Part shown: positions 14,957 through 22,706 of the stretch, piece after piece
Position numbering within the stretch: position 1 is the stretch's first letter
Layout: every line of letters starts with the position of its first letter
NCBI GenBank assembly: GCA_036490295.1
Contig: DASXED010000126.1
Location: 1,718-65,717, forward strand
Reading direction: 5' to 3'
DNA from: Verrucomicrobiia bacterium
Lineage (GTDB): Bacteria > Verrucomicrobiota > Verrucomicrobiia > Limisphaerales > UBA11358
DNA: 64,000 bases
Notes under the pieces: generated by a model
Told to the model about the DNA's origin: nothing
The model's input: only the letters and a program-made list of their open reading frames with translations
Databases searched by the model: none
Program-made: the position numbers and the translations under genes

Positions 14957-15495
14957 TCCGAATAATGTTCGACGAACGAATCCCATTTTCCCTGCGCGCG
15001 CAAAATCATTTCAACCACCTCGCGGATCGCGCTGTGGCCGCCTGCGGCGCGCGTCGTGAAATGCGCCGCCGCTTTTGCCTCGCTGACTCCGTTCGCAACG
15101 GCGACGGCGAGACCCGCGCGTTTCAACGGTCCTAAATCAACAACGTCGTCGCCGACAAAACAAACCTCGTTCCAGCTTAAATTTTCCTTTGCCAGAAGTT
15201 TTTCAATCGCGTCGGTTTTGCTCAAGCGGTCGCCTTGCTGGACGAGAAAATCAATTTTCAATTCCTTCGCGCGCATTTTGGTCGCGAGCGACGGACGCGC
15301 CGAAACCCAGCCAATTTTGATTCCTGAACGGCGCAATAAAACCAATCCAAGTCCGTCTTGAATGTTGAATTGTTTGAACTCGCGCTCGCCGCCGATGAAA
15401 ATTGAGCCGTCCGTCAAAACGCCGTCCACGTCGCAAAGAAATAATTTAATGCGCGCGGCGCGTTGTCGAATGGCGGCTGAAATTTTTGCAGGCAT
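14953..15495 (-). CDS. kdsC: 3-deoxy-D-manno-octulosonate 8-phosphate phosphatase (HAD family)
   Basis: 'LFLCDVDGVLTDG' HAD motif I and 'FVGDDVVDL' motif. Typical KdsC length. Confidence 0.85.
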   Translation of the reverse strand: MPAKISAAIRQRAARIKLFLCDVDGVLTDGSIFIGGEREFKQFNIQDGLGLVLLRRSGIKIGWVSARPSLATKMRAKELKIDFLVQQGDRLSKTDAIEKLLAKENLSWNEVCFVGDDVVDLGPLKRAGLAVAVANGVSEAKAAAHFTTRAAGGHSAIREVVEMILRAQGKWDSFVEHYSE

Positions 15496-15522
15496 CGGGG
15501 ATTCAAAGGTGAATAGTATAAA

Positions 15523-15720
15523 TCAAGCTTCAACAGGTGTTCCCATCCACTTGACAACCCGCAAATTGCTCTGTGGATACTTCTCACGAAGTTCTTTTAG
15601 GATAATCAACGCCCGTTCCTCGCCCGGTCTCATAATCGAGTGAAACATGACCCAGCCGACAGACGTCTCAATTTCTATTGTGAATTTCTCCATAATGTAT
15701 TGTGTCTCGTGGCTCAACAT
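15523..15720 (-). CDS. Hypothetical small protein (65 aa)
   Basis: ORF only, in a visibly more AT-rich segment wedged between kdsA and kdsC. No recognisable motif. Confidence 0.3.
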   Translation of the reverse strand: MLSHETQYIMEKFTIEIETSVGWVMFHSIMRPGEERALIILKELREKYPQSNLRVVKWMGTPVEA

Positions 15721-15762
15721 CTGATTGAACTACGCGATGTGAATTCTTTGGCGTTGATTTTT

Positions 15763-16578
15763 TCATTTCGCGGCTTCGTAAATTTTCAACAACGAGCGTA
15801 ACACCGTTGCCATTTCGGCCAGCGGAATCATGTTCGGCCCGTCGCTCAAGGCTTTGTCCGGCTGCGGATGCGTTTCGAGAAAAATTCCGTTCGCGCCCGC
15901 CGACAAGGCGCAGCGCGCAAGAACCGGCGCAAATTCGCGCTGGCCGCCCGATTTGTCGCCGCCACCGCCGGGCAATTGCACGGAATGAGTCGCGTCAAAA
16001 ACAATTGGAAAACCAAACGATTTCATAATCGGAATCGAGCGCATATCGGCGACGAGATTATTGTAGCCAAACGTCGTGCCGCGTTCGGTGAGCAAAATTC
16101 TTTTTGTGCCGCCGCGTTTCGCCTTTTCGGCGGCGTGACCCATTTCCGTCGGCGAAAGAAATTGTCCCTTTTTTAAGTTCACAATTTTTCCCGTCGCTCC
16201 GGCTGCGTGAATCAAATCCGTCTGTCGGCAAAGAAACGCGGGAATTTGCAGGATGTCCACGACTTCGCCCGCAGCGGCGGCTTGCACTTCATTGTGAACG
16301 TCCGTCAAAACCGGCAACTCAAATTCCGCGCGGACTTTGGCGAGAATTTTCAGGCCGTTTTCAATTCCAAGTCCGCGAAAGGATTTCGCGGAAGTGCGGT
16401 TGGCCTTGTCGAAGCTGGCCTTGAAGACGTAAAAAATGCCGAGCGACGCGCAGGTTTTTTTGAGCGAGGCGGCGACTTGCAGGCACAGCTTTTCACTTTC
16501 AATCACGCACGGCCCGGCGATCAAAAACAACCGGCGCGGCGAATTGAGGTTTTTCCAGATGGCGGCGGCGTTAAGCAC
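15763..16578 (-). CDS. kdsA: 2-dehydro-3-deoxyphosphooctonate aldolase (KDO8P synthase)
   Basis: Full-length KdsA-like sequence ('[10 protein letters not shown]', '[12 protein letters not shown]', '[10 protein letters not shown]'). Confidence 0.95.
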
Positions 16579-16686
16579 GCGGAATTTTTAGCAGGGAGTT
16601 TGCCCAAAGTAAATCCATGAAAGCCATTTGGCGAAAGGTGACAGTCTTTTTTAATTGTAGCGGCGGTCGAAGAACTTGCGGACGCG

Positions 16687-16899
16687 CTAGGACGTCAGCT
16701 CGTTCGAAGTTCTGATGGGCTGGAGCAATCTGGCTTGTTTGAGCAGGCGGCAGAAATCTTTTTTGCTGGTGACGTGCCTTGTGCCTTCCTTGCTGCCGGG
16801 GTTGGGCATGGATTTATATTCCACTTCGAGCCGTTCGAGGTGCACGATGCGGATGTATTCCTTGTCCTTTTTCCAGACCTGGCCTTGGCACAGTTTCAT
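16687..16899 (-). CDS. Hypothetical small protein (70 aa)
   Basis: ORF only: 'GQVWKKDKEYIRIVHLERLEVEYK...'. No recognisable family. Confidence 0.35.
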   Translation of the reverse strand: MKLCQGQVWKKDKEYIRIVHLERLEVEYKSMPNPGSKEGTRHVTSKKDFCRLLKQARLLQPIRTSNELTS

Positions 16900-16986
16900 G
16901 GGACGAATATACGAACCGGTGAAATTTTTGGAAGAAATCTGTCCCTCCTGATTTTTGCATCAGGAGAAACAGCAGGAAACGGACGG

Positions 16987-17112
16987 TTACTTTTTCTTGG
17001 CGGCGGCGGATTTGGCGGCGGCGGCTGCACTTTTCCTGGCGTTGTCGCCGCTGGTTTTGGATTGTTTCTGTGAGGATTTCTTCTGGTTGGATTTCGGGGA
17101 TTTATCGCCCAT
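16987..17112 (-). CDS. Putative 41-aa Lys/Ser/Ala-rich basic peptide (below the ORF-track length cutoff)
   Basis: My own translation gives MGDKSPKSNQKKSSQKQSKTSGDNARKSAAAAAKSAAAKKK*. ATG at 17112, TAA at 16987-16989. It is preceded by a three-segment alternative-hairpin motif. Confidence 0.35.
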   Translation of the reverse strand: MGDKSPKSNQKKSSQKQSKTSGDNARKSAAAAAKSAAAKKK

Positions 17113-17333
17113 AATTTTATTTTTCCGCAGGTTGACTTGCCTGCGGAATTTTAGTTTCTCCGCAGGAAACCCTGCATCATGCGCGCCGGACGGGTCATTG
17201 TAAATGGCGGACGCAAAATCATTTGGCGCGTGCGCGCAGCGTTTGCCTCCAAAAAATAGTTGCCGATAGTTGTGGCTATTCCGGCAAAGGGTGCGACAAT
17301 TGGAGCGTCTGTTGGATAGCTTGTTTCTTTCAA

Positions 17334-17436
17334 GGCATGGTAATCCTCAAGTGAACTTGTTTCAGTGATGATTTTAGACCCGGTTTTCGGGAACAGTCTG
17401 TGGAAAGCGCCGGTTTGTCGGACAGTAAAACATCAC
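17334..17436 (+). promoter_or_regulatory. Conserved 5' leader of RRM-protein gene, copy A
   Basis: About 100 nt upstream of the ATG aligns along its length with 19082-19186. Shared blocks are GGCATGGT, TCAAGTGAAC, TTCAGTGATGATTT, CGGGAACAGTCTG and GGACAGTAAA(A)CATCAC-ATG. Confidence 0.55.
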
Positions 17437-17757
17437 ATGAGCAATAAATTATTCGTAGGAAATCTTTCCTTCAATACAACCGAGAACAGCCTGAACGACG
17501 CGTTCGCCGCGTTCGGCACGGTCACGGAAACCAACCTGATGATGGACCGGGAAACCGGCCGTCCGCGCGGTTTCGGATTCATCACCATGAGTTCCGCCGA
17601 GGAAGCCCAGAAAGCCATCGAAGGCATGAACGGCAAGGACATGGACGGTCGCGCACTCACAGTCAACGTCGCCAAGCCGCGTGAAGAACGCGCGCCCGGC
17701 GGTGGCGGTGGAGGTCGTCGTGAATACGGCGGCGGTGGCGGCGGTCGCCGTTATTGA
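17437..17757 (+). CDS. RRM-type RNA-binding protein with a Gly/Arg-rich tail
   Basis: RNP2 'LFVGNLSF', RNP1 'RGFGFITM', C-terminal 'GGGGGGRREYGGGGGGRRY'. Start placed at MSNKLF. Confidence 0.9.
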   Translation: MSNKLFVGNLSFNTTENSLNDAFAAFGTVTETNLMMDRETGRPRGFGFITMSSAEEAQKAIEGMNGKDMDGRALTVNVAKPREERAPGGGGGGRREYGGGGGGRRY

Positions 17758-17776
17758 GCGCAAGTAAGTTTTCGCA

Positions 17777-17813
17777 GCGGGGCTTGGAGAAATCCAAGTC
17801 CTGCTTTTTTATT
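17777..17813 (+). terminator. Intrinsic terminator after RRM gene A
   Basis: Imperfect stem GCGGGGCTTGGA / TCCAAGTCCTGC with a GAAA loop, followed by TTTTTTATTTT. Confidence 0.6.
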
Positions 17814-17935
17814 TTCGAAAATGTTTTAGCTCTTGCGGATGTAAATATTTTTAGGAAAATTGAGTGATGGCCGAAGAAATAGTGTGGCCGATTGTCTCCT
17901 ATTGGAATTAGACAACACAGCTTCGGCTCAATACA

Positions 17936-18253
17936 ATGTATCCACGCTTTCGCATGAAAGAAACTTTGCAAGATGCCGCATACAAGCTAGCCAAAGAAAA
18001 TTATGGAGTTGCTTTGTTTGCGACTAGGGAGAGTCTTGAGCGGATGTTTTCGTCCGCTGGTTTTGATGCAGCATTTCATGCAGCGGAGCGTGGTATGCAG
18101 TTTCACTTAGCAGCCCATCGTTTCGCTGAAAGAGTTTGGGCGAAGGAGTTGCCATACGAGAAGGCCGAGTCTTCACTGCGAAAGCAGTTCCACGAGTTTT
18201 CCGAGAAGACTTGCCAGAAGGCATTCAGCGAGGCATACACAGAGACTCGGTGA
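17936..18253 (+). CDS. Hypothetical protein (105 aa)
   Basis: ORF only, in a more AT-rich segment between the two RRM genes. The predicted product is helical with no recognisable motif. Confidence 0.35.
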   Translation: MYPRFRMKETLQDAAYKLAKENYGVALFATRESLERMFSSAGFDAAFHAAERGMQFHLAAHRFAERVWAKELPYEKAESSLRKQFHEFSEKTCQKAFSEAYTETR

Positions 18254-18274
18254 CACGTCAGCCTAATACCCCAA

Positions 18275-18826
18275 TCATTTCCTCGACACGAACAGATTGC
18301 CCTTGATGTAAAATCGCAAATGCCGCCGCGCCCAATGCTTCGCGTAATCCACGCCAATGCGCGGACGTTTGACGATTGAAAATGATTCCGCTTCGTCCGG
18401 CTCGGCGATGAAAAAATTGTCGCTCAACAAATCATGGCCGTTGAGTTTCCTGTCAATTTTCATCGCGCGGCAAAGCAACCCCGGCCCGCAAGTCCGGCCT
18501 TCGAGATTTTTCACCGGCTCAATCGCGCGCAACAAAACCGCCGACGCATGGCCTTCGCGCTCCGTTACGACGTTCATGCAGAAATACATTCCGTAAATGA
18601 AATAAACGTAGGCGTGTCCCGGCGGGCCGAACATTATTTTTGTCCGCGCCGTCAATCCTTTGGAAGAATGCGCCGCAAGGTCGTGCGGGCCGAGATACGC
18701 CTCGGTCTCGACAATTTTCCCGACGCGCTCCATGCCGCGCGATTTGTGAACCAGAAATTTTCCGAGCAATTCCTTCGCGACGGCAATCGTGTCGCGGTCG
18801 TAAAATGCGCGCGGCAGTTTTTTCAT
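18275..18826 (-). CDS. mpg: DNA-3-methyladenine glycosylase (Mpg/AAG family)
   Basis: 'FYDRDTIAVAKELLGKFLV', 'IVETEAYLGPHDLAAHS', 'GHAYVYFIYGMYFCMNVV', 'VLLRAIEP'. Start placed at MKKLPRAF (ATG at 18826). Confidence 0.9.
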   Translation of the reverse strand: MKKLPRAFYDRDTIAVAKELLGKFLVHKSRGMERVGKIVETEAYLGPHDLAAHSSKGLTARTKIMFGPPGHAYVYFIYGMYFCMNVVTEREGHASAVLLRAIEPVKNLEGRTCGPGLLCRAMKIDRKLNGHDLLSDNFFIAEPDEAESFSIVKRPRIGVDYAKHWARRHLRFYIKGNLFVSRK

Positions 18827-19081
18827 TTCTGCAATAATACTCTTTGAAATAATTCTGCATGATTCTGCAAATTCTGTCTCTTGATTTTGCCGAAGAAAAT
18901 CCGGCAGTGCCCTGATTTCGGAACGCGGCATTTATGACGCTTCACCGTTCAAAGCAATTGGGGCGCTGAAACGGGCTAAAGTCCGCGTTCCATCCGCAAA
19001 TTAGGACGCCGCAGAAAAATCTTGCCATTTCCGCAAAAGCTGCGATTCTTCGCTTGTCTGTAGATAGCACAGAGCTACCAC

Positions 19082-19186
19082 GGCATGGTGAATCTTCAAG
19101 TGAACCTGGTTCAGTGATGATTTGAAATCCGATTAACGGGAACAGTCTGGTCAAAGCAAAGTTCGGTCTAGGACAGTAAACATCAC
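19082..19186 (+). promoter_or_regulatory. Conserved 5' leader of RRM-protein gene, copy B
   Basis: Paralogous to 17334-17436 (same conserved blocks). The short hairpin CCG-ATTAA-CGG occupies the position of CCCG-GTTTT-CGGG in copy A. Confidence 0.55.
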
Positions 19187-19537
19187 ATGAGCAATAAATT
19201 GTTTGTCGGGAATCTATCCTTCGACACCACAGAAAACGACCTGCAGGACGCCTTTGCGGCGCACGGCACGGTCACGGAAACCAACCTGATGATGGACCGC
19301 ATGAGCGGCCGTCCCCGTGGATTCGGTTTCGTCACCATGAGCACGCCGGAAGAAGCTGAAAAAGCCATTCAAGCATTGAACGGCGCCCAGCTTGGCGGTC
19401 GCGCCCTCACGGTCAACATCGCGCGTCCGCGCGAAGATCGTCCGCCCGGCGGCGGCGGTGGCGGCAGCCGCGGACCTCGTCGTGAATTCGGCGGCGGCGG
19501 CAGCGGTGGCGGCGGCGGTCGTCGTGATCGCTATTAA
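19187..19537 (+). CDS. RRM-type RNA-binding protein with a Gly/Arg-rich tail (paralog)
   Basis: RNP2 'LFVGNLSF', RNP1 'RGFGFVTM', and a GGGGG/RR tail. Confidence 0.9.
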
Positions 19538-19555
19538 GCAATAGACTTTTACACA

Positions 19556-19590
19556 GCGAGGCCCGGTTTTATCGGGCCTCGCTTTTTTGT
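19556..19590 (+). terminator. Intrinsic terminator after RRM gene B
   Basis: Perfect 10-bp stem GCGAGGCCCG / CGGGCCTCGC (19556-19565 / 19573-19582) with a 7-nt loop, followed by TTTTTTGTTTTTTG. Confidence 0.8.
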
Positions 19591-19763
19591 TTTTTGTTCC
19601 GGCCCTGTAAATTTCAGGTTGAAGCCGTTTCATTTTACGTCAACATCTTTGGCGGACAGCATGGCGGAATTGCTGGCCGGCAACACCATGCCACATTGTC
19701 CGTCGCTCGGCTTAAGCAGCAAACTGACGTGCTTCAATTTGCGGCGGGTGATTCCGTGAAAGC

Positions 19764-20864
19764 CTAATTTTTCGGCTGTTTCCAGTAAAAGCTCACAACT
19801 TCGACGTCGGTTGGCGAGTTGCGGAAGATGATGGCGACGAACTCGCGCTTGTAATCGCCGACTTGCGCGGTGACGTGGACTTCAAAGGTGCGGCTGTGCA
19901 CGTCGCAGAGACTGCCCAGGCTTGCCCGGGCTTGCGGCGGGACAAGGCCGTTCAACTGGCCGACAGAGCGGAACGGCGTGTCATCGTCGGTTCCATCCAC
20001 GCCGTCGGGCCCGGCGCGTTGCTGGACGATGCTGGCGGCGATCTGGGGATCCACGCCGGGAAGCAGTTGGAGCACGTTGGTGCCGGCGGTGTTGACATTG
20101 ATGCGCCCGGAGGAAATGGGCGTGAAGACATCCTTCAATCCGAACGGATAATCCGGCGGCTGGCCGGGAGAAGTTCCGAAGCCTAGCTTGTGTTGAAAGG
20201 TGGCGGGCGTGTGGTTCGCCGCGCTGCCGCCCCAGTAGATTTCCGGCTGGTCCGAAATTCCCCTGACCAGCAGCAATTCGGACAAGTCGTCAATCGGCGC
20301 GTTCTTGGCGTGATAAGGCGGATTCAATCCCTGATAATAATCGTTCTCCGCGCCGGCAAGGCGGGGCGCATCGTCGGCATCAATCCAGTCTTGGATTGAA
20401 TCGGACACGACGGAAATGTTATCCGCGTCCACACCCATGAGCGTGAGCGCCTGCTGGATTTCCGGCGTGTTGGCGGTGTTGATGTTTGCGAAGCGTTCGA
20501 GGTCAATGATTTTCCAGGAAACCGTGCCGTTTCCAATAGTGTAATTGTCCTGCGAAATTCCGGTCAGCACGCTGTTGCTTTCGCCCATGCTGCATTGCCC
20601 GCTGGCCCAAAACTGATTCAGCGAATCATAAGGCTCGTTTGGAATTGAGGCTGATTGCGCCAGAATCCAGCGTGTCAATTCCACGCCCGAACGGCCGAGC
20701 CAGAGCAATTGCTGGTCGGAATCCGCGTTTTGCGCGAGCTTGGTCTCGACTTTCATCGAATATGCGAAGCCCGCCGCCAGCATGGACAGCACCAAAATCG
20801 CGATCATCGCGATGATGAGCGCGATGCCGTCGCGGGAATTTTGGCGGGTGGAAAATTTCATCAT
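19764..20864 (-). CDS. gspK: Type II secretion minor pseudopilin GspK-like
   Basis: 'RDGIALIIAMIAILVLSMLAAGFAYSM' N-terminus, typical GspK size, C-terminal helix-hairpin-helix-like region. Last gene of the pseudopilin operon. Confidence 0.8.
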   Translation of the reverse strand: MMKFSTRQNSRDGIALIIAMIAILVLSMLAAGFAYSMKVETKLAQNADSDQQLLWLGRSGVELTRWILAQSASIPNEPYDSLNQFWASGQCSMGESNSVLTGISQDNYTIGNGTVSWKIIDLERFANINTANTPEIQQALTLMGVDADNISVVSDSIQDWIDADDAPRLAGAENDYYQGLNPPYHAKNAPIDDLSELLLVRGISDQPEIYWGGSAANHTPATFQHKLGFGTSPGQPPDYPFGLKDVFTPISSGRINVNTAGTNVLQLLPGVDPQIAASIVQQRAGPDGVDGTDDDTPFRSVGQLNGLVPPQARASLGSLCDVHSRTFEVHVTAQVGDYKREFVAIIFRNSPTDVEVVSFYWKQPKN

Positions 20865-21658
20865 TGGCCGGGCAGTTTTATCTGGTTAATCGGGCCACCA
20901 CGGTTCGCCCCCGGCATTTGCACCACTGACGGCAGCGTTTGCGAGGGCATTGAAACCACGCGCGTGACCGTCCGCACCGGGGCGGTGCCGCCAAAACTGT
21001 TGTTGTTGCCGCCGAGCGAAAGGCTGACGCGCACCATTGTCGGAATCGAATTCGTGTCGTCCCATTCATTGTCCCACGCCATTGCGTTCGTGTCCCAGCA
21101 CTCGACGACAAAGCTCTGCACGTTGCGCGCCAGCAGGAGCGGGGTTTGCTGCTCGTCCGCGTCCATGTCCATGAGGATCGGATTCTGGCGCAGCACCAAA
21201 TCTTTTTCCGAATCGGTCCCCGGCTCGACGCTGAACGTGACGCGCCGCACGTTGAAACCGCCGAATTTTCCGTTGCGGAGAAAATCATCCGGCAGCCGCG
21301 CGGTGAAACTTAACGACGGCAGGTCGCCGTTGGTGATGTCGAAAACGTAATACTGCATGGACGCCTGGAACGACTGGATGCACGTCAGCGAATCCTCGAT
21401 GGTGCGGATGGCGACGCGCTGGCGCTGCACCTGCGCGGCGGCTTCCTGCCCGACCCGCGCCGCGCGCATGATCATCAGCCACGTCGAGTAAATCGCCGCC
21501 ATCACGAGGCTGAAAACCGTGATGGCAATCAACACTTCAATCAGCGTGAAGGCGAGTCGTCGAGGGTCGAGGGCCGGGAGCCGAGAGCCGCCGCGCGCAA
21601 CGCGAAATGTTTTCCGCCCTCGACTCTCGGCTCTCGACTTTCGACAAAGAGTTTTCAT
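20861..21658 (-). CDS. Prepilin-type N-terminal methylation-domain protein, GspJ-like
   Basis: 'A|FTLIEVLIAITVFSLVMAAIYS' class III signal motif preceded by a 36-aa Arg-rich leader. The GspJ assignment rests on size and position. Confidence 0.7.
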   Translation of the reverse strand: MKTLCRKSRAESRGRKTFRVARGGSRLPALDPRRLAFTLIEVLIAITVFSLVMAAIYSTWLMIMRAARVGQEAAAQVQRQRVAIRTIEDSLTCIQSFQASMQYYVFDITNGDLPSLSFTARLPDDFLRNGKFGGFNVRRVTFSVEPGTDSEKDLVLRQNPILMDMDADEQQTPLLLARNVQSFVVECWDTNAMAWDNEWDDTNSIPTMVRVSLSLGGNNNSFGGTAPVRTVTRVVSMPSQTLPSVVQMPGANRGGPINQIKLPGQ

Positions 21659-22146
21659 CTTGCCACCGTTGCCCCTTCCAGGCTGCCCGCCGGCGACTGG
21701 GGCCGGTAAAACAAGACGCTCATTTTGGAAATGACGGCGGTATTGCGGTCCACTTCAAAATCCACCTGAAAAAGTTTGTTCGACTGCACTTCCGTGATGT
21801 CGCGCGTCCAGCTGTAGCCGCTGTAGGAATCGCCGAGCAGTTCGCCAAGGTCGCCGGATTCCGTGCCTTCGACGAGTTGATTGGTCAGCGAAAGTTCCGC
21901 CGCCACCAATCCCGCGTCCACCGTGGGACGCTGCAACCGGCGCGCGTTGTCAATGGATTGCGAAACCAGCGCCAGGATGGAAAACGACGCCGTGAAAAAA
22001 ATGACCACGGCGAACATGACTTCGATCAGCGTGAAGGCGCAGGCGCGTCGAGGGTCGAGGGTCGAGGGTCGAGAGAAATTGCGCGCCGCGCGAAATGTTT
22101 TCCGCCTTCGACTCCCGACTCTCGACTTTCGGCAAAGAATTTTCAT
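21655..22146 (-). CDS. Prepilin-type N-terminal methylation-domain protein, GspI-like
   Basis: 'A|FTLIEVMFAVVIFFTA' preceded by a 37-aa Arg-rich leader. Start at the ATG at 22146 (ATGA overlap with the upstream stop). No other in-frame start codon before FTLIE. Confidence 0.7.
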   Translation of the reverse strand: MKILCRKSRVGSRRRKTFRAARNFSRPSTLDPRRACAFTLIEVMFAVVIFFTASFSILALVSQSIDNARRLQRPTVDAGLVAAELSLTNQLVEGTESGDLGELLGDSYSGYSWTRDITEVQSNKLFQVDFEVDRNTAVISKMSVLFYRPQSPAGSLEGATVAR

Positions 22147-22706
22147 TTCATCGGACCGACGGATGCCAGGGCGGTGGTCACTTCGAGCGTGATTTTCCGC
22201 CACTGATCGCCGGAATGAAGCACCAGCGTCATTTCATCGCTCGTGCCGTTCGGAAAAAACCGCACGGGCGGCGCCTCGTCCGCGTCCTTGTATTCCACCA
22301 GATTGATGTCGAGCGCCTCGATGATGATGCTGTCGTCGAACTGCGCCGAATTCACCGGCTTTGAATTAATCCGGGTTGACGGCGCGGACGAATCCACGAC
22401 GCCGCTGAATTCAATCTGATGTGCCTGCGGGTGAAAAACCACCGTGGTCGTCTGGCCGTGCAAAATCGCCTGCGCGCGCGCGTGGCTGCAAATCTCCAGC
22501 GAGTCATTGACCGCCTTGCGCAGCGGTTCTTCTCGAAACGCGCTCAAAATGGATGGAACGCCCATGGCCGCGACGAGGCCGATGATGGCGGCGACCATCA
22601 TGATTTCAATGAGCGTGAAAGCGCTGGCGCGTCGAGGGCAGGAAAAATTTCGCGCGCGTGACTGCGTTCGACCCTCGACTTTCGACTCTCGACTGCTTCG
22701 CATCAT
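22143..22706 (-). CDS. Prepilin-type N-terminal methylation-domain protein, GspH/FimT-like
   Basis: 'A|FTLIEIMMVAAIIGLVAAMGVP' preceded by a 29-aa leader 'MMRSSRESKVEGRTQSRARNFSCPRRAS'. Overlaps the gspF stop. Confidence 0.7.
   Translation of the reverse strand: MMRSSRESKVEGRTQSRARNFSCPRRASAFTLIEIMMVAAIIGLVAAMGVPSILSAFREEPLRKAVNDSLEICSHARAQAILHGQTTTVVFHPQAHQIEFSGVVDSSAPSTRINSKPVNSAQFDDSIIIEALDINLVEYKDADEAPPVRFFPNGTSDEMTLVLHSGDQWRKITLEVTTALASVGPMK

Follow-up and report, generated by a model that had tools for sequence, protein, structure and literature searches.

Bacterial proteins with an RNA recognition motif (RRM) are emerging as RNA chaperones and post-transcriptional regulators in phyla where Hfq, CsrA or classical cold-shock systems are lacking, such as Bacteroidota and cyanobacteria. 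To our knowledge, how the levels of these proteins are set is largely unknown, and we know of almost no regulatory RNA annotation in the Verrucomicrobiota. The present analysis concerns an RNA leader that precedes two RRM genes, termed A and B, in a 64,000-nucleotide (nt) stretch of a Limisphaerales genome (Verrucomicrobiia bacterium, GenBank assembly GCA_036490295.1, contig DASXED010000126.1, positions 1,718 to 65,717 of the forward strand), referred to below as the window. Comparison of homologous loci suggests that the RRM proteins' own production is probably controlled through this leader, an apparently undescribed element, which hence offers a handle on RRM-protein homeostasis in a major phylum of soil, peat and freshwater. 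The principle is not new: leaders of this type are already known for csp and rbp genes.

Among described systems, Chlorobi-RRM (RF01697) resembles the leader in being a lineage-restricted candidate cis-regulatory RNA located before RRM genes, found by comparative genomics and with a regulatory role that is likewise a candidate one (Weinberg et al. 2010, PMC2864571). It differs in its phylum, the Chlorobi, and RF01697 was not reported for the leaders by cmscan; on sequence grounds the two elements are probably independent, with homology undetectable. In Bacteroides thetaiotaomicron, the genes rbpA, rbpB and rbpC have 5' untranslated regions (UTRs) of 122-155 nt and are subject to redundant feedback among paralogs that acts partly post-transcriptionally via the 5' UTR, and the Rbp proteins are needed in the cold (bioRxiv 2026, PMC13370968). 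The verrucomicrobial genes similarly encode paralogous single-RRM proteins behind long 5' UTRs (130-131 nt), and, like Bacteroides, the verrucomicrobial host appears largely to do without initiation led by a Shine-Dalgarno sequence. However, the phyla differ, the Bacteroides regulation is experimental whereas the verrucomicrobial leader is described from sequence alone, and the two are compared by description only.

Paralogs also cross-compensate in Synechocystis, where rbp1 rises upon deletion of rbp2 and rbp3 (PMC12232666). The 5' UTR of Anabaena rbpA1 controls cold accumulation, as cited in PMC4152365 (Ehira, Ohmori and Sato 2005). Like the genes considered here, rbpA1 encodes a glycine-rich RRM protein and has a 5' UTR, a likeness drawn by description only. 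Its mechanism is reportedly largely one of transcriptional derepression and mRNA stability, and we know of no sequence blocks shared between its 5' UTR and the leader. In Escherichia coli, according to the account of cspA given in PMC13370968, this chaperone gene has a long leader whose alternative folds alter start accessibility, and the protein family autoregulates via the leader. The cspA leader (cold box, thermosensing mRNA) and the verrucomicrobial leader are thus both long leaders of RNA-chaperone genes with alternative folds. In contrast, cspA encodes a cold-shock domain rather than an RRM and has a Shine-Dalgarno sequence, which the verrucomicrobial leader lacks, and the latter shows neither a match to the Rfam cspA model nor a temperature trend in silico.

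Extent, conservation and gene association of the leader

The identification of genes A and B as RRM RNA-binding protein genes in an earlier reading of the stretch, made from the sequence alone, is borne out by an RRM_1 match in Pfam for both. Their start codons lie at 17437 and 19187, and both genes are monocistronic. The features that define the two transcription units are as follows.

17273..17300, + strand: predicted sigma-70-type promoter of gene A, with -35 TGGCTA (17273-17278) and extended -10 TGcGACAAT (17292-17300)
17307..17436, + strand: leader A, the whole predicted 5' UTR (130 nt), found by nhmmer; covariance model 158.9 bits, E = 2e-36
17437..17757, + strand: RRM gene A, 106 aa, RRM_1 domain followed by a Gly/Arg-rich tail; Pfam E = 8e-23
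19022..19049, + strand: predicted promoter of gene B, with -35 TTGCCA (19022-19027) and extended -10 TGcGATTCT (19041-19049)
19056..19186, + strand: leader B, the whole predicted 5' UTR (131 nt); covariance model 139.4 bits
19187..19537, + strand: RRM gene B, 116 aa, RRM_1 domain and Gly/Arg-rich tail; Pfam E = 3e-22

The two upstream regions align over their entire length, as the sequence-only reading had claimed, and every block that it named is found in both. Identity between the leaders is 84/102 (82%) over 17334-17436 and 19082-19186, exceeding what would be expected of non-coding DNA: the RRM parts of the coding sequences are 76% identical, their third codon positions 57% (50/87) and their four-fold sites 20/38, while the flanks fall to 60% and then 44% further upstream of the leader and to 59% after the stop codon. 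A recent duplication that had preserved the flanks to the same degree, which would have accounted for the similarity, was looked for and is not what these values describe; because the leader is more conserved than near-neutral sites of the same duplication, it is no by-product of recent copying. The same relation holds across 144 leader-gene pairs, with a mean pairwise identity of 74% for the leader (gaps counted as mismatches) and 56% for third codon positions, and with the leader value the higher in 99% of comparisons. Judged by these comparisons, purifying selection acts on the leader, which changes more slowly than synonymous sites do.

A promoter was derived by stacking 147 homologous upstream regions without gaps, with GTCTG as the anchor. 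The stack has the consensus TTGCnA-N16-(TGn)nAnnnT (the spacer of gene A is 16 nt), and information peaks at TTGCnAT, at the G within TGn and, in the -10 hexamer, at A2 and T6. The end of this hexamer lies 7 nt upstream of GTCTG (17307 in A, 19056 in B), where leader conservation begins and where the transcription start is predicted. Since the conserved stretch spans the predicted transcription start to the AUG, the conserved element is the entire predicted 5' UTR. The proposal of a conserved leader of about 100 nt shared by the two genes thus holds as to the sharing but not as to the length, which is about 130 nt, the block beginning about 27 nt 5' of the previously assigned start at 17334. 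The suggestion that GGCATGGT could be an extended -10 has to be abandoned, given that it lies about 27 nt inside the predicted transcript, downstream of the conserved promoter; folding models indicate that it probably pairs with CAGUCUG in the helix P1 described below. Upstream of the -35 of gene A, and abutting it, is a direct repeat of ATAGTTG (17256-17262 and 17266-17272), kept in most A-type homologous promoters (consensus GATAGTTGCCGATAGTTGTTGCTAT) and not in paralog B. By its position, the repeat may be a transcription-factor site or an UP-like element, which may imply an extra transcriptional layer particular to one paralog type.

Relatives were sampled by a protein-anchored scan with one genome per species, from which the best 80 loci were taken. 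The sample consists of close protein relatives, and a protein search meant to reach more distant RRM genes likewise gave close ones among the 120 listed (identity of at least 87%). Almost all loci are labelled Verrucomicrobiota, Verrucomicrobiae, subdivision 3, Limisphaerales or Pedosphaera, alongside a few obviously misnamed metagenome-assembled genomes. Upstream DNA is included in 79 of these best 80 loci, and in 78 of them nhmmer with leader A or a profile places the leader directly before the RRM gene. Leader A alone recovers 79 matches before an RRM gene, with E-values of 1e-29 to 6e-10 that put the similarity far outside chance, and about 75 species-level genomes have the leader in common. 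A DNA pattern restricted to the leader, which demanded its conserved core and contained no coding sequence, matched at least 120 metagenome contigs; where these extend downstream, an RRM protein is encoded there directly after the leader, of the form M[SN]xKL[FY]VGNL... in 114 of 119 and with slightly different start contexts in the others. At least about 170 distinct leader copies were gathered from genomes and metagenomes together. No leader was found before a non-RRM gene among the genome loci and the at least 120 metagenome contigs, and a profile and a covariance model, run over the 64-kb window and about 0.5 Mb of flanking sequence, detected no additional copies. The leader is thus linked exclusively to RRM genes, and is a cis-acting RNA dedicated to them in Verrucomicrobiota of the Limisphaerales/Pedosphaera group.

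Several genomes carry two or three leader-bearing RRM paralogs, arranged in tandem, divergently or far apart, and the gene-plus-leader unit has evidently, to judge from these arrangements, been duplicated repeatedly as a whole. Tandem pairs of leader-bearing genes occur at L063:2361-3133 and L115:1918-2660, and a divergent pair about 200 bp apart at L084:12265-12774. The exception among the loci is L057 (2300-2530), in which the RRM gene has an unrelated upstream region that retains AACATCATGTATG alone near the start. At L043 (2900-3260), the leader of a second tandem paralog (MSNRLYVGNL...) is reduced to a degenerate 5' part.

There is next to no chance that the conservation is an artefact, either the leftover of a recent tandem duplication or coding sequence in the form of an N-terminal extension or upstream open reading frame (ORF). 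A coding origin could be suspected from the A-type leaders, in which the frame is open from a GTG or ATG within the leader into the gene (ORF 17365..17757, from GTG 17365), and from the many database gene calls of 129 aa rather than 106 aa, which include part of the leader. However, paralog B has an in-frame TGA (ATGATTTGA), the frame is broken by 1- and 2-nt indels among homologs, and variation clusters in hairpin loops rather than at third positions; the 129-aa calls are therefore probably over-extended annotations, and the delimitation of the leader corrects them. A duplication leftover is contradicted by the divergence of four-fold sites and flanks given above and by the sharing of the leader among about 75 species-level genomes.

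The sequence-only reading held that such an element would be new in this lineage, and no Rfam 15 family matches the leaders in cmscan searches of 15000-22000 and 17280-17470 with E-values up to 10 and permissive filters. The hits reported are at chance level only, with E 0.4-8 and 11-17 bits where the gathering scores are 31-64. Among them are C/D-box snoRNA models from eukaryotes and archaea at 17360-17406 (E 3.6-8.1), where GUGAUGA resembles a C box; a kink-turn or C/D-box interpretation of GUGAUGA was rejected, the snoRNA hits being at chance level and the helix geometry not fitting. No known riboswitch aptamer in Rfam 15 matches the leader, and its association with RRM genes only hints at no metabolite. 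No description of the motif was found in the literature, recent large motif surveys included. By extending from promoter to start on the mRNA strand of one gene family, the leader belongs on sequence criteria to the generic class of cis-regulatory 5' leader RNAs. It represents a sharply bounded, abundant RNA element outside Rfam, with a predicted promoter, start and helices and a candidate ON/OFF pair that can be placed to the base.

A predicted nested fold of the leader RNA

RNAalifold returned two hairpins from 78 sequences and, from 150 non-redundant leaders with RIBOSUM scoring, a nested fold of four helices. In this fold, P0 joins the 5' end of the transcript (CUGUUAGAU) to the GUC..GGACAG block just 5' of the start region, and P1 joins CAAGGCAUG to CAGUCUG together with a short outer segment. 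The elements lie as follows.

17309..17324, + strand: P0 5' strand (CUGUUGGAUAGCUUGU), pairing with 17409-17425 (GCCGGUUUGUCGGACAG); RNAalifold, 150 leaders
17327..17339, + strand: P1 5' strand (CUUUC, AGGCAUG; includes the GGCATGG block), pairing with 17394-17407
17342..17373, + strand: P2, a near-invariant imperfect hairpin with a variable apical loop, AAUC-Y-UCA-RG-UGAA / UUCA-G-UGA-U-GAUU; RNAalifold
17379..17391, + strand: P3, a small hairpin, CCCG-loop-CGGG, with a variable loop, paired in 150/150 leaders
17394..17407, + strand: P1 3' strand (CAGUCUG...GAAAG; CAGUCU, GAAAG); RNAalifold, pair counts
17409..17425, + strand: P0 3' strand, holding the conserved GUC..GGACAG block; RNAalifold, pair counts, cognate-duplex test
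17426..17436, + strand: A-rich start-proximal segment UAAAACAUCAC, without a Shine-Dalgarno sequence, single-stranded in the nested fold, base-paired in the alternative one
19056-19070/19161-19174, + strand: P0 of leader B
19074-19087/19143-19157, + strand: P1 of leader B
19090-19123, + strand: P2 of leader B
19128-19141, + strand: P3 of leader B

In a MAFFT alignment of the 150 leaders, the proportion of paired cells is 88% and 94% in P0, 82% and 93% in P1, 95-99% in P2 and 100% in P3. Across the at least about 170 leaders gathered, sequence variation is compatible with the helices. In P1b (the segment that is 93% paired), the GGC variants GAU, GAC and GGU still match GUC, and the rare changes in P2 all preserve pairing (A-U to G-U and U-A to U-G in 8 sequences each, C-G to U-A once). 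The small hairpin with differing loops that had been noticed in the two paralogs corresponds to P3 and is real, with the consensus (C/U)CCG-loop-CGG(G/A) and a closing pair that varies between C-G (119 leaders), U-A (20) and U-G (11).

Changes on both sides of a pair are located in P0, P1a and the closing pair of P3. Pairs with such changes number 10 in the MAFFT alignment versus 7.0 in shuffles (25/500 as high) and 12 versus 7.3 (3/500) in a model-fitted alignment, which is biased towards the model; in the latter, further pair types number 45 versus 35.8 (0/500), all these shuffles ignoring relatedness. By eye, divergent clades retain P0 with other sequence: the L096 group has GUG[C]UUUUAGGC / GUCUAAGACAC, and L097 and L131 have GUUC.../...GAAC. 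In UUCGAU variants the consensus A-G mismatch becomes C-G. Independently of any alignment, the energy of the duplex between a leader's own two strands was compared with that of mixed pairs, in a test whose p-values are inflated by relatedness. Cognate P0 duplexes were more stable than non-cognate ones by -0.49 kcal/mol (p = 5e-6, inflated as stated) and cognate P1 duplexes by a weak -0.25 kcal/mol (p = 0.03, likewise inflated); neither the invariant P2 nor the controls gave a signal in this test. Conserved G-U pairs would become A-C on the opposite strand, and the structure therefore belongs to the mRNA strand. The best-supported architecture in these models is nested, with P0 and P1 enclosing P2 and P3 and the start region single-stranded.

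Other pairings were set aside. A local hairpin, P4, formed by the internal GUCUG with CGGAC, is paired in 90% but has a cognate energy of +0.29 kcal/mol, not significant; it competes with P0 and P1, and its only remaining place is in the possible OFF fold. For a GAU/AUC pairing and for a simple local P1 hairpin (CUUG/CAAG), inspection by eye showed inconsistent variants, and both were rejected.

A candidate start-occluding helix and the proposed control of RRM-protein synthesis

The sequence-only reading also proposed that GTGATG, in the upstream part of the leader, could pair with CATCAC and occlude the start codon. The two segments are placed as follows.

17365..17370 (A) and 19114-19119 (B), + strand: GUGAUG, common to the P2 3' strand and the alternative helix, with CAUCAC as partner
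17431-17436 (A) and 19181-19186 (B), + strand: CAUCAC abutting the AUG, complementary to GUGAUG

Both leaders form this helix in their minimum-free-energy folds. Across the 150 leaders 92% of its cells are paired, and at least 129 of them (about 86%) combine five or more of its six pairs with an intact P2. Cognate strands are favoured over non-cognate ones by -0.12 kcal/mol (p = 0.013, inflated by relatedness). The complementarity is thus kept, but occlusion can be no more than an alternative state: because GUGAUG is also the 3' strand of P2, P2 and the start-occluding helix are mutually exclusive. When P2 is enforced, the model returns the whole nested fold with the start region fully free, whereas enforcing the long-range helix yields up to 15 bp over the AUG of leader B. 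It is plausible from this modelling that the start-occluding helix is an OFF state, less constrained than P2. Among 129 leaders, ensembles constrained to P2 or to the helix differ in free energy (ddG) by a mean of about 0 with a standard deviation of 4 kcal/mol, 43% favouring P2, and unconstrained base-pair probabilities give a similar split.

A Shine-Dalgarno-like motif lies within 20 nt of the first start codon in 4 of the 48 long ORFs of the 64-kb window (start calls being crude), and many of these ORFs have A-rich sequence upstream; to judge from the window, initiation independent of Shine-Dalgarno sequences appears to be the organism's main route. As the genome is poor in such sequences, the accessibility of the A-rich start region is a plausible control point.

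These features suggest that the leader may serve auto- or cross-regulation of translation by RRM proteins, possibly through the ON/OFF pair of folds and possibly in connection with cold, an interpretation that we favour tentatively and rate slightly short of probable. It is favoured because of the exclusive linkage to RRM genes, the sharing of the leader among paralogs, the frozen primary sequence and the precedents in other bacteria. The leader would act as a binding platform for RRM proteins, including those of paralogs, that feed back on their own synthesis. Binding of RRM protein, or loss of P2, would let GUGAUG pair with CAUCAC-AUG and hide the start codon, while titration of RRM proteins onto other RNAs, for example after a shift to cold, would restore the nested fold, free the start and increase translation. 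We infer the binding partner, the direction of regulation and the link to temperature. A more specific and more speculative version, possible though rather doubtful, is that of a two-state RNA switch, confined to Verrucomicrobia poor in Shine-Dalgarno sequences, in which the leader senses the free pool of RRM chaperones. Cold or RNA-folding stress would then be read through the free chaperones and set their translation. In such a switch, GUGAUG would alternate between the P2 5' strand and CAUCAC-AUG, and GGACAG between the 5' end and the internal GUCUG; dual partners for nearly every conserved block would explain the frozen sequence. If true, bacterial RRM proteins would have a further family of autoregulatory RNAs, new and of independent evolutionary origin.

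Several observations weigh against regulation through alternative folds. About 10% of leaders have lost CAUCAC yet kept GTGATGATTT / GUGAUGAUUU unchanged; U5 of GUGAUG, the only position at which the block varies, is bulged in P2 but would pair with A in the long-range helix, and no compensation accompanies its changes; and about half of the substitutions in CAUCAC preserve pairing (wobble), as transition bias alone would give. For these three reasons P2 is regarded as the primary constraint. The apparent bistability may be an averaging effect, given the spread of modelled ddG values. Support for the nested fold is also limited: P2 shows no informative double changes and covariation is thin, the P3 closing-pair signal could represent one or a few events separating paralog types, and single-sequence folding energies of the two leaders are no better than those of shuffles (z = -0.63 and +0.35). 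The power to detect covariation is low because the leader family is so conserved.

The same evidence bears on the alternatives. It is unlikely that the leader is a cspA-type thermosensor in cis, refolding with temperature at equilibrium or during transcription and exposing the start in the cold with no protein needed. Such a sensor would have the two mutually exclusive folds, one of which hides the AUG; the 5' UTR length is near those of cspA (159 nt) and the Bacteroides rbp genes (PMC13370968), and the cyanobacterial relatives are cold-induced (PMC12232666). Modelled with 45 nt of coding sequence, leader B shifts in the cold-ON direction, from probabilities of 0.59 for P2 and 0.10 for start pairing at 10 °C to 0.25 and 0.61 at 37 °C. 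However, the model keeps leader A locked in the OFF fold at every temperature, and nearest-neighbour modelling of the 129 leaders shows no temperature trend in ddG between 5 and 37 °C, the mean staying at about 0 and 43% favouring P2 at each temperature. The primary sequence is also nearly frozen, unpaired blocks included, whereas known RNA thermometers conserve structure rather than sequence, and the Rfam cspA thermoregulator is not matched. By the pattern of conservation, frozen unpaired blocks and stems would fit a trans-acting factor better than a pure thermometer.

Even less probable is a constitutive stabiliser or enhancer, in which P0 would shield the mRNA from 5'-end-dependent decay and an open A-rich start region would drive high expression of an abundant RNA chaperone without switching. 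P0 sequesters nt 3-15 of the transcript and has the clearest co-variation of all helices, the nested fold keeps the start region open, and leaders that lack CAUCAC do without the start-occluding helix. A 5' hairpin would suffice for this purpose, though, leaving unexplained the 130 near-invariant nt, the invariant P2 and unpaired blocks, the complementarity to CAUCAC in most leaders and the confinement of the leader to RRM genes out of all highly expressed ones. We consider it highly improbable that the conservation reflects a DNA-level array of operators for a transcription factor downstream of the start, as proposed for repression of Anabaena rbpA1 via the region of its 5' UTR. The very conserved primary sequence with little covariation would suit operators, and the ATAGTTG repeat beside the A-type -35 makes some transcriptional control likely. 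Against an operator array, conservation runs exactly from the predicted +1 to the AUG, stems are conserved while loops are free, G-U pairs are conserved, P0 and P3 change on both sides, and 130 bp far exceeds a typical operator. Auto- or cross-regulation by RRM proteins thus remains the interpretation that we favour.

Terminators and neighbouring genes

Both transcription units end in a predicted intrinsic terminator.

17776..17815, + strand: intrinsic terminator of gene A, strong, with a 13-bp stem followed by a T run
19555..19593, + strand: intrinsic terminator of gene B, strong

The terminator stems (17776-17805 and 19555-19583) differ at several positions, and pairing is complete in both (gene A AGCGGGGCTTGG...CCAAGTCCTGCT; gene B AGCGAGGCCCGG...CCGGGCCTCGCT). 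On the sequence evidence, the differences represent compensatory change since the duplication.

Between the two RRM genes lie an unrelated 105-aa ORF and a methylpurine-DNA glycosylase gene on the opposite strand. Just upstream of RRM gene A and divergent from it is a 41-aa ORF rich in Lys, Ala and Ser (MGDKSPKSNQKKSSQKQSKTSGDNARKSAAAAAKSAAAKKK; 16987-17112, - strand), which is followed by a terminator-like hairpin (16972-16939, - strand) and may encode a real small basic protein. Downstream of gene B, a run of minus-strand ORFs (19764-22203) has prepilin-type N-termini (e.g. ...FTLIEVLIAITVFSLVMAAI...), and by these sequences looks like a pseudopilin cluster or a cluster of type II secretion or type IV pilus minor pilins.

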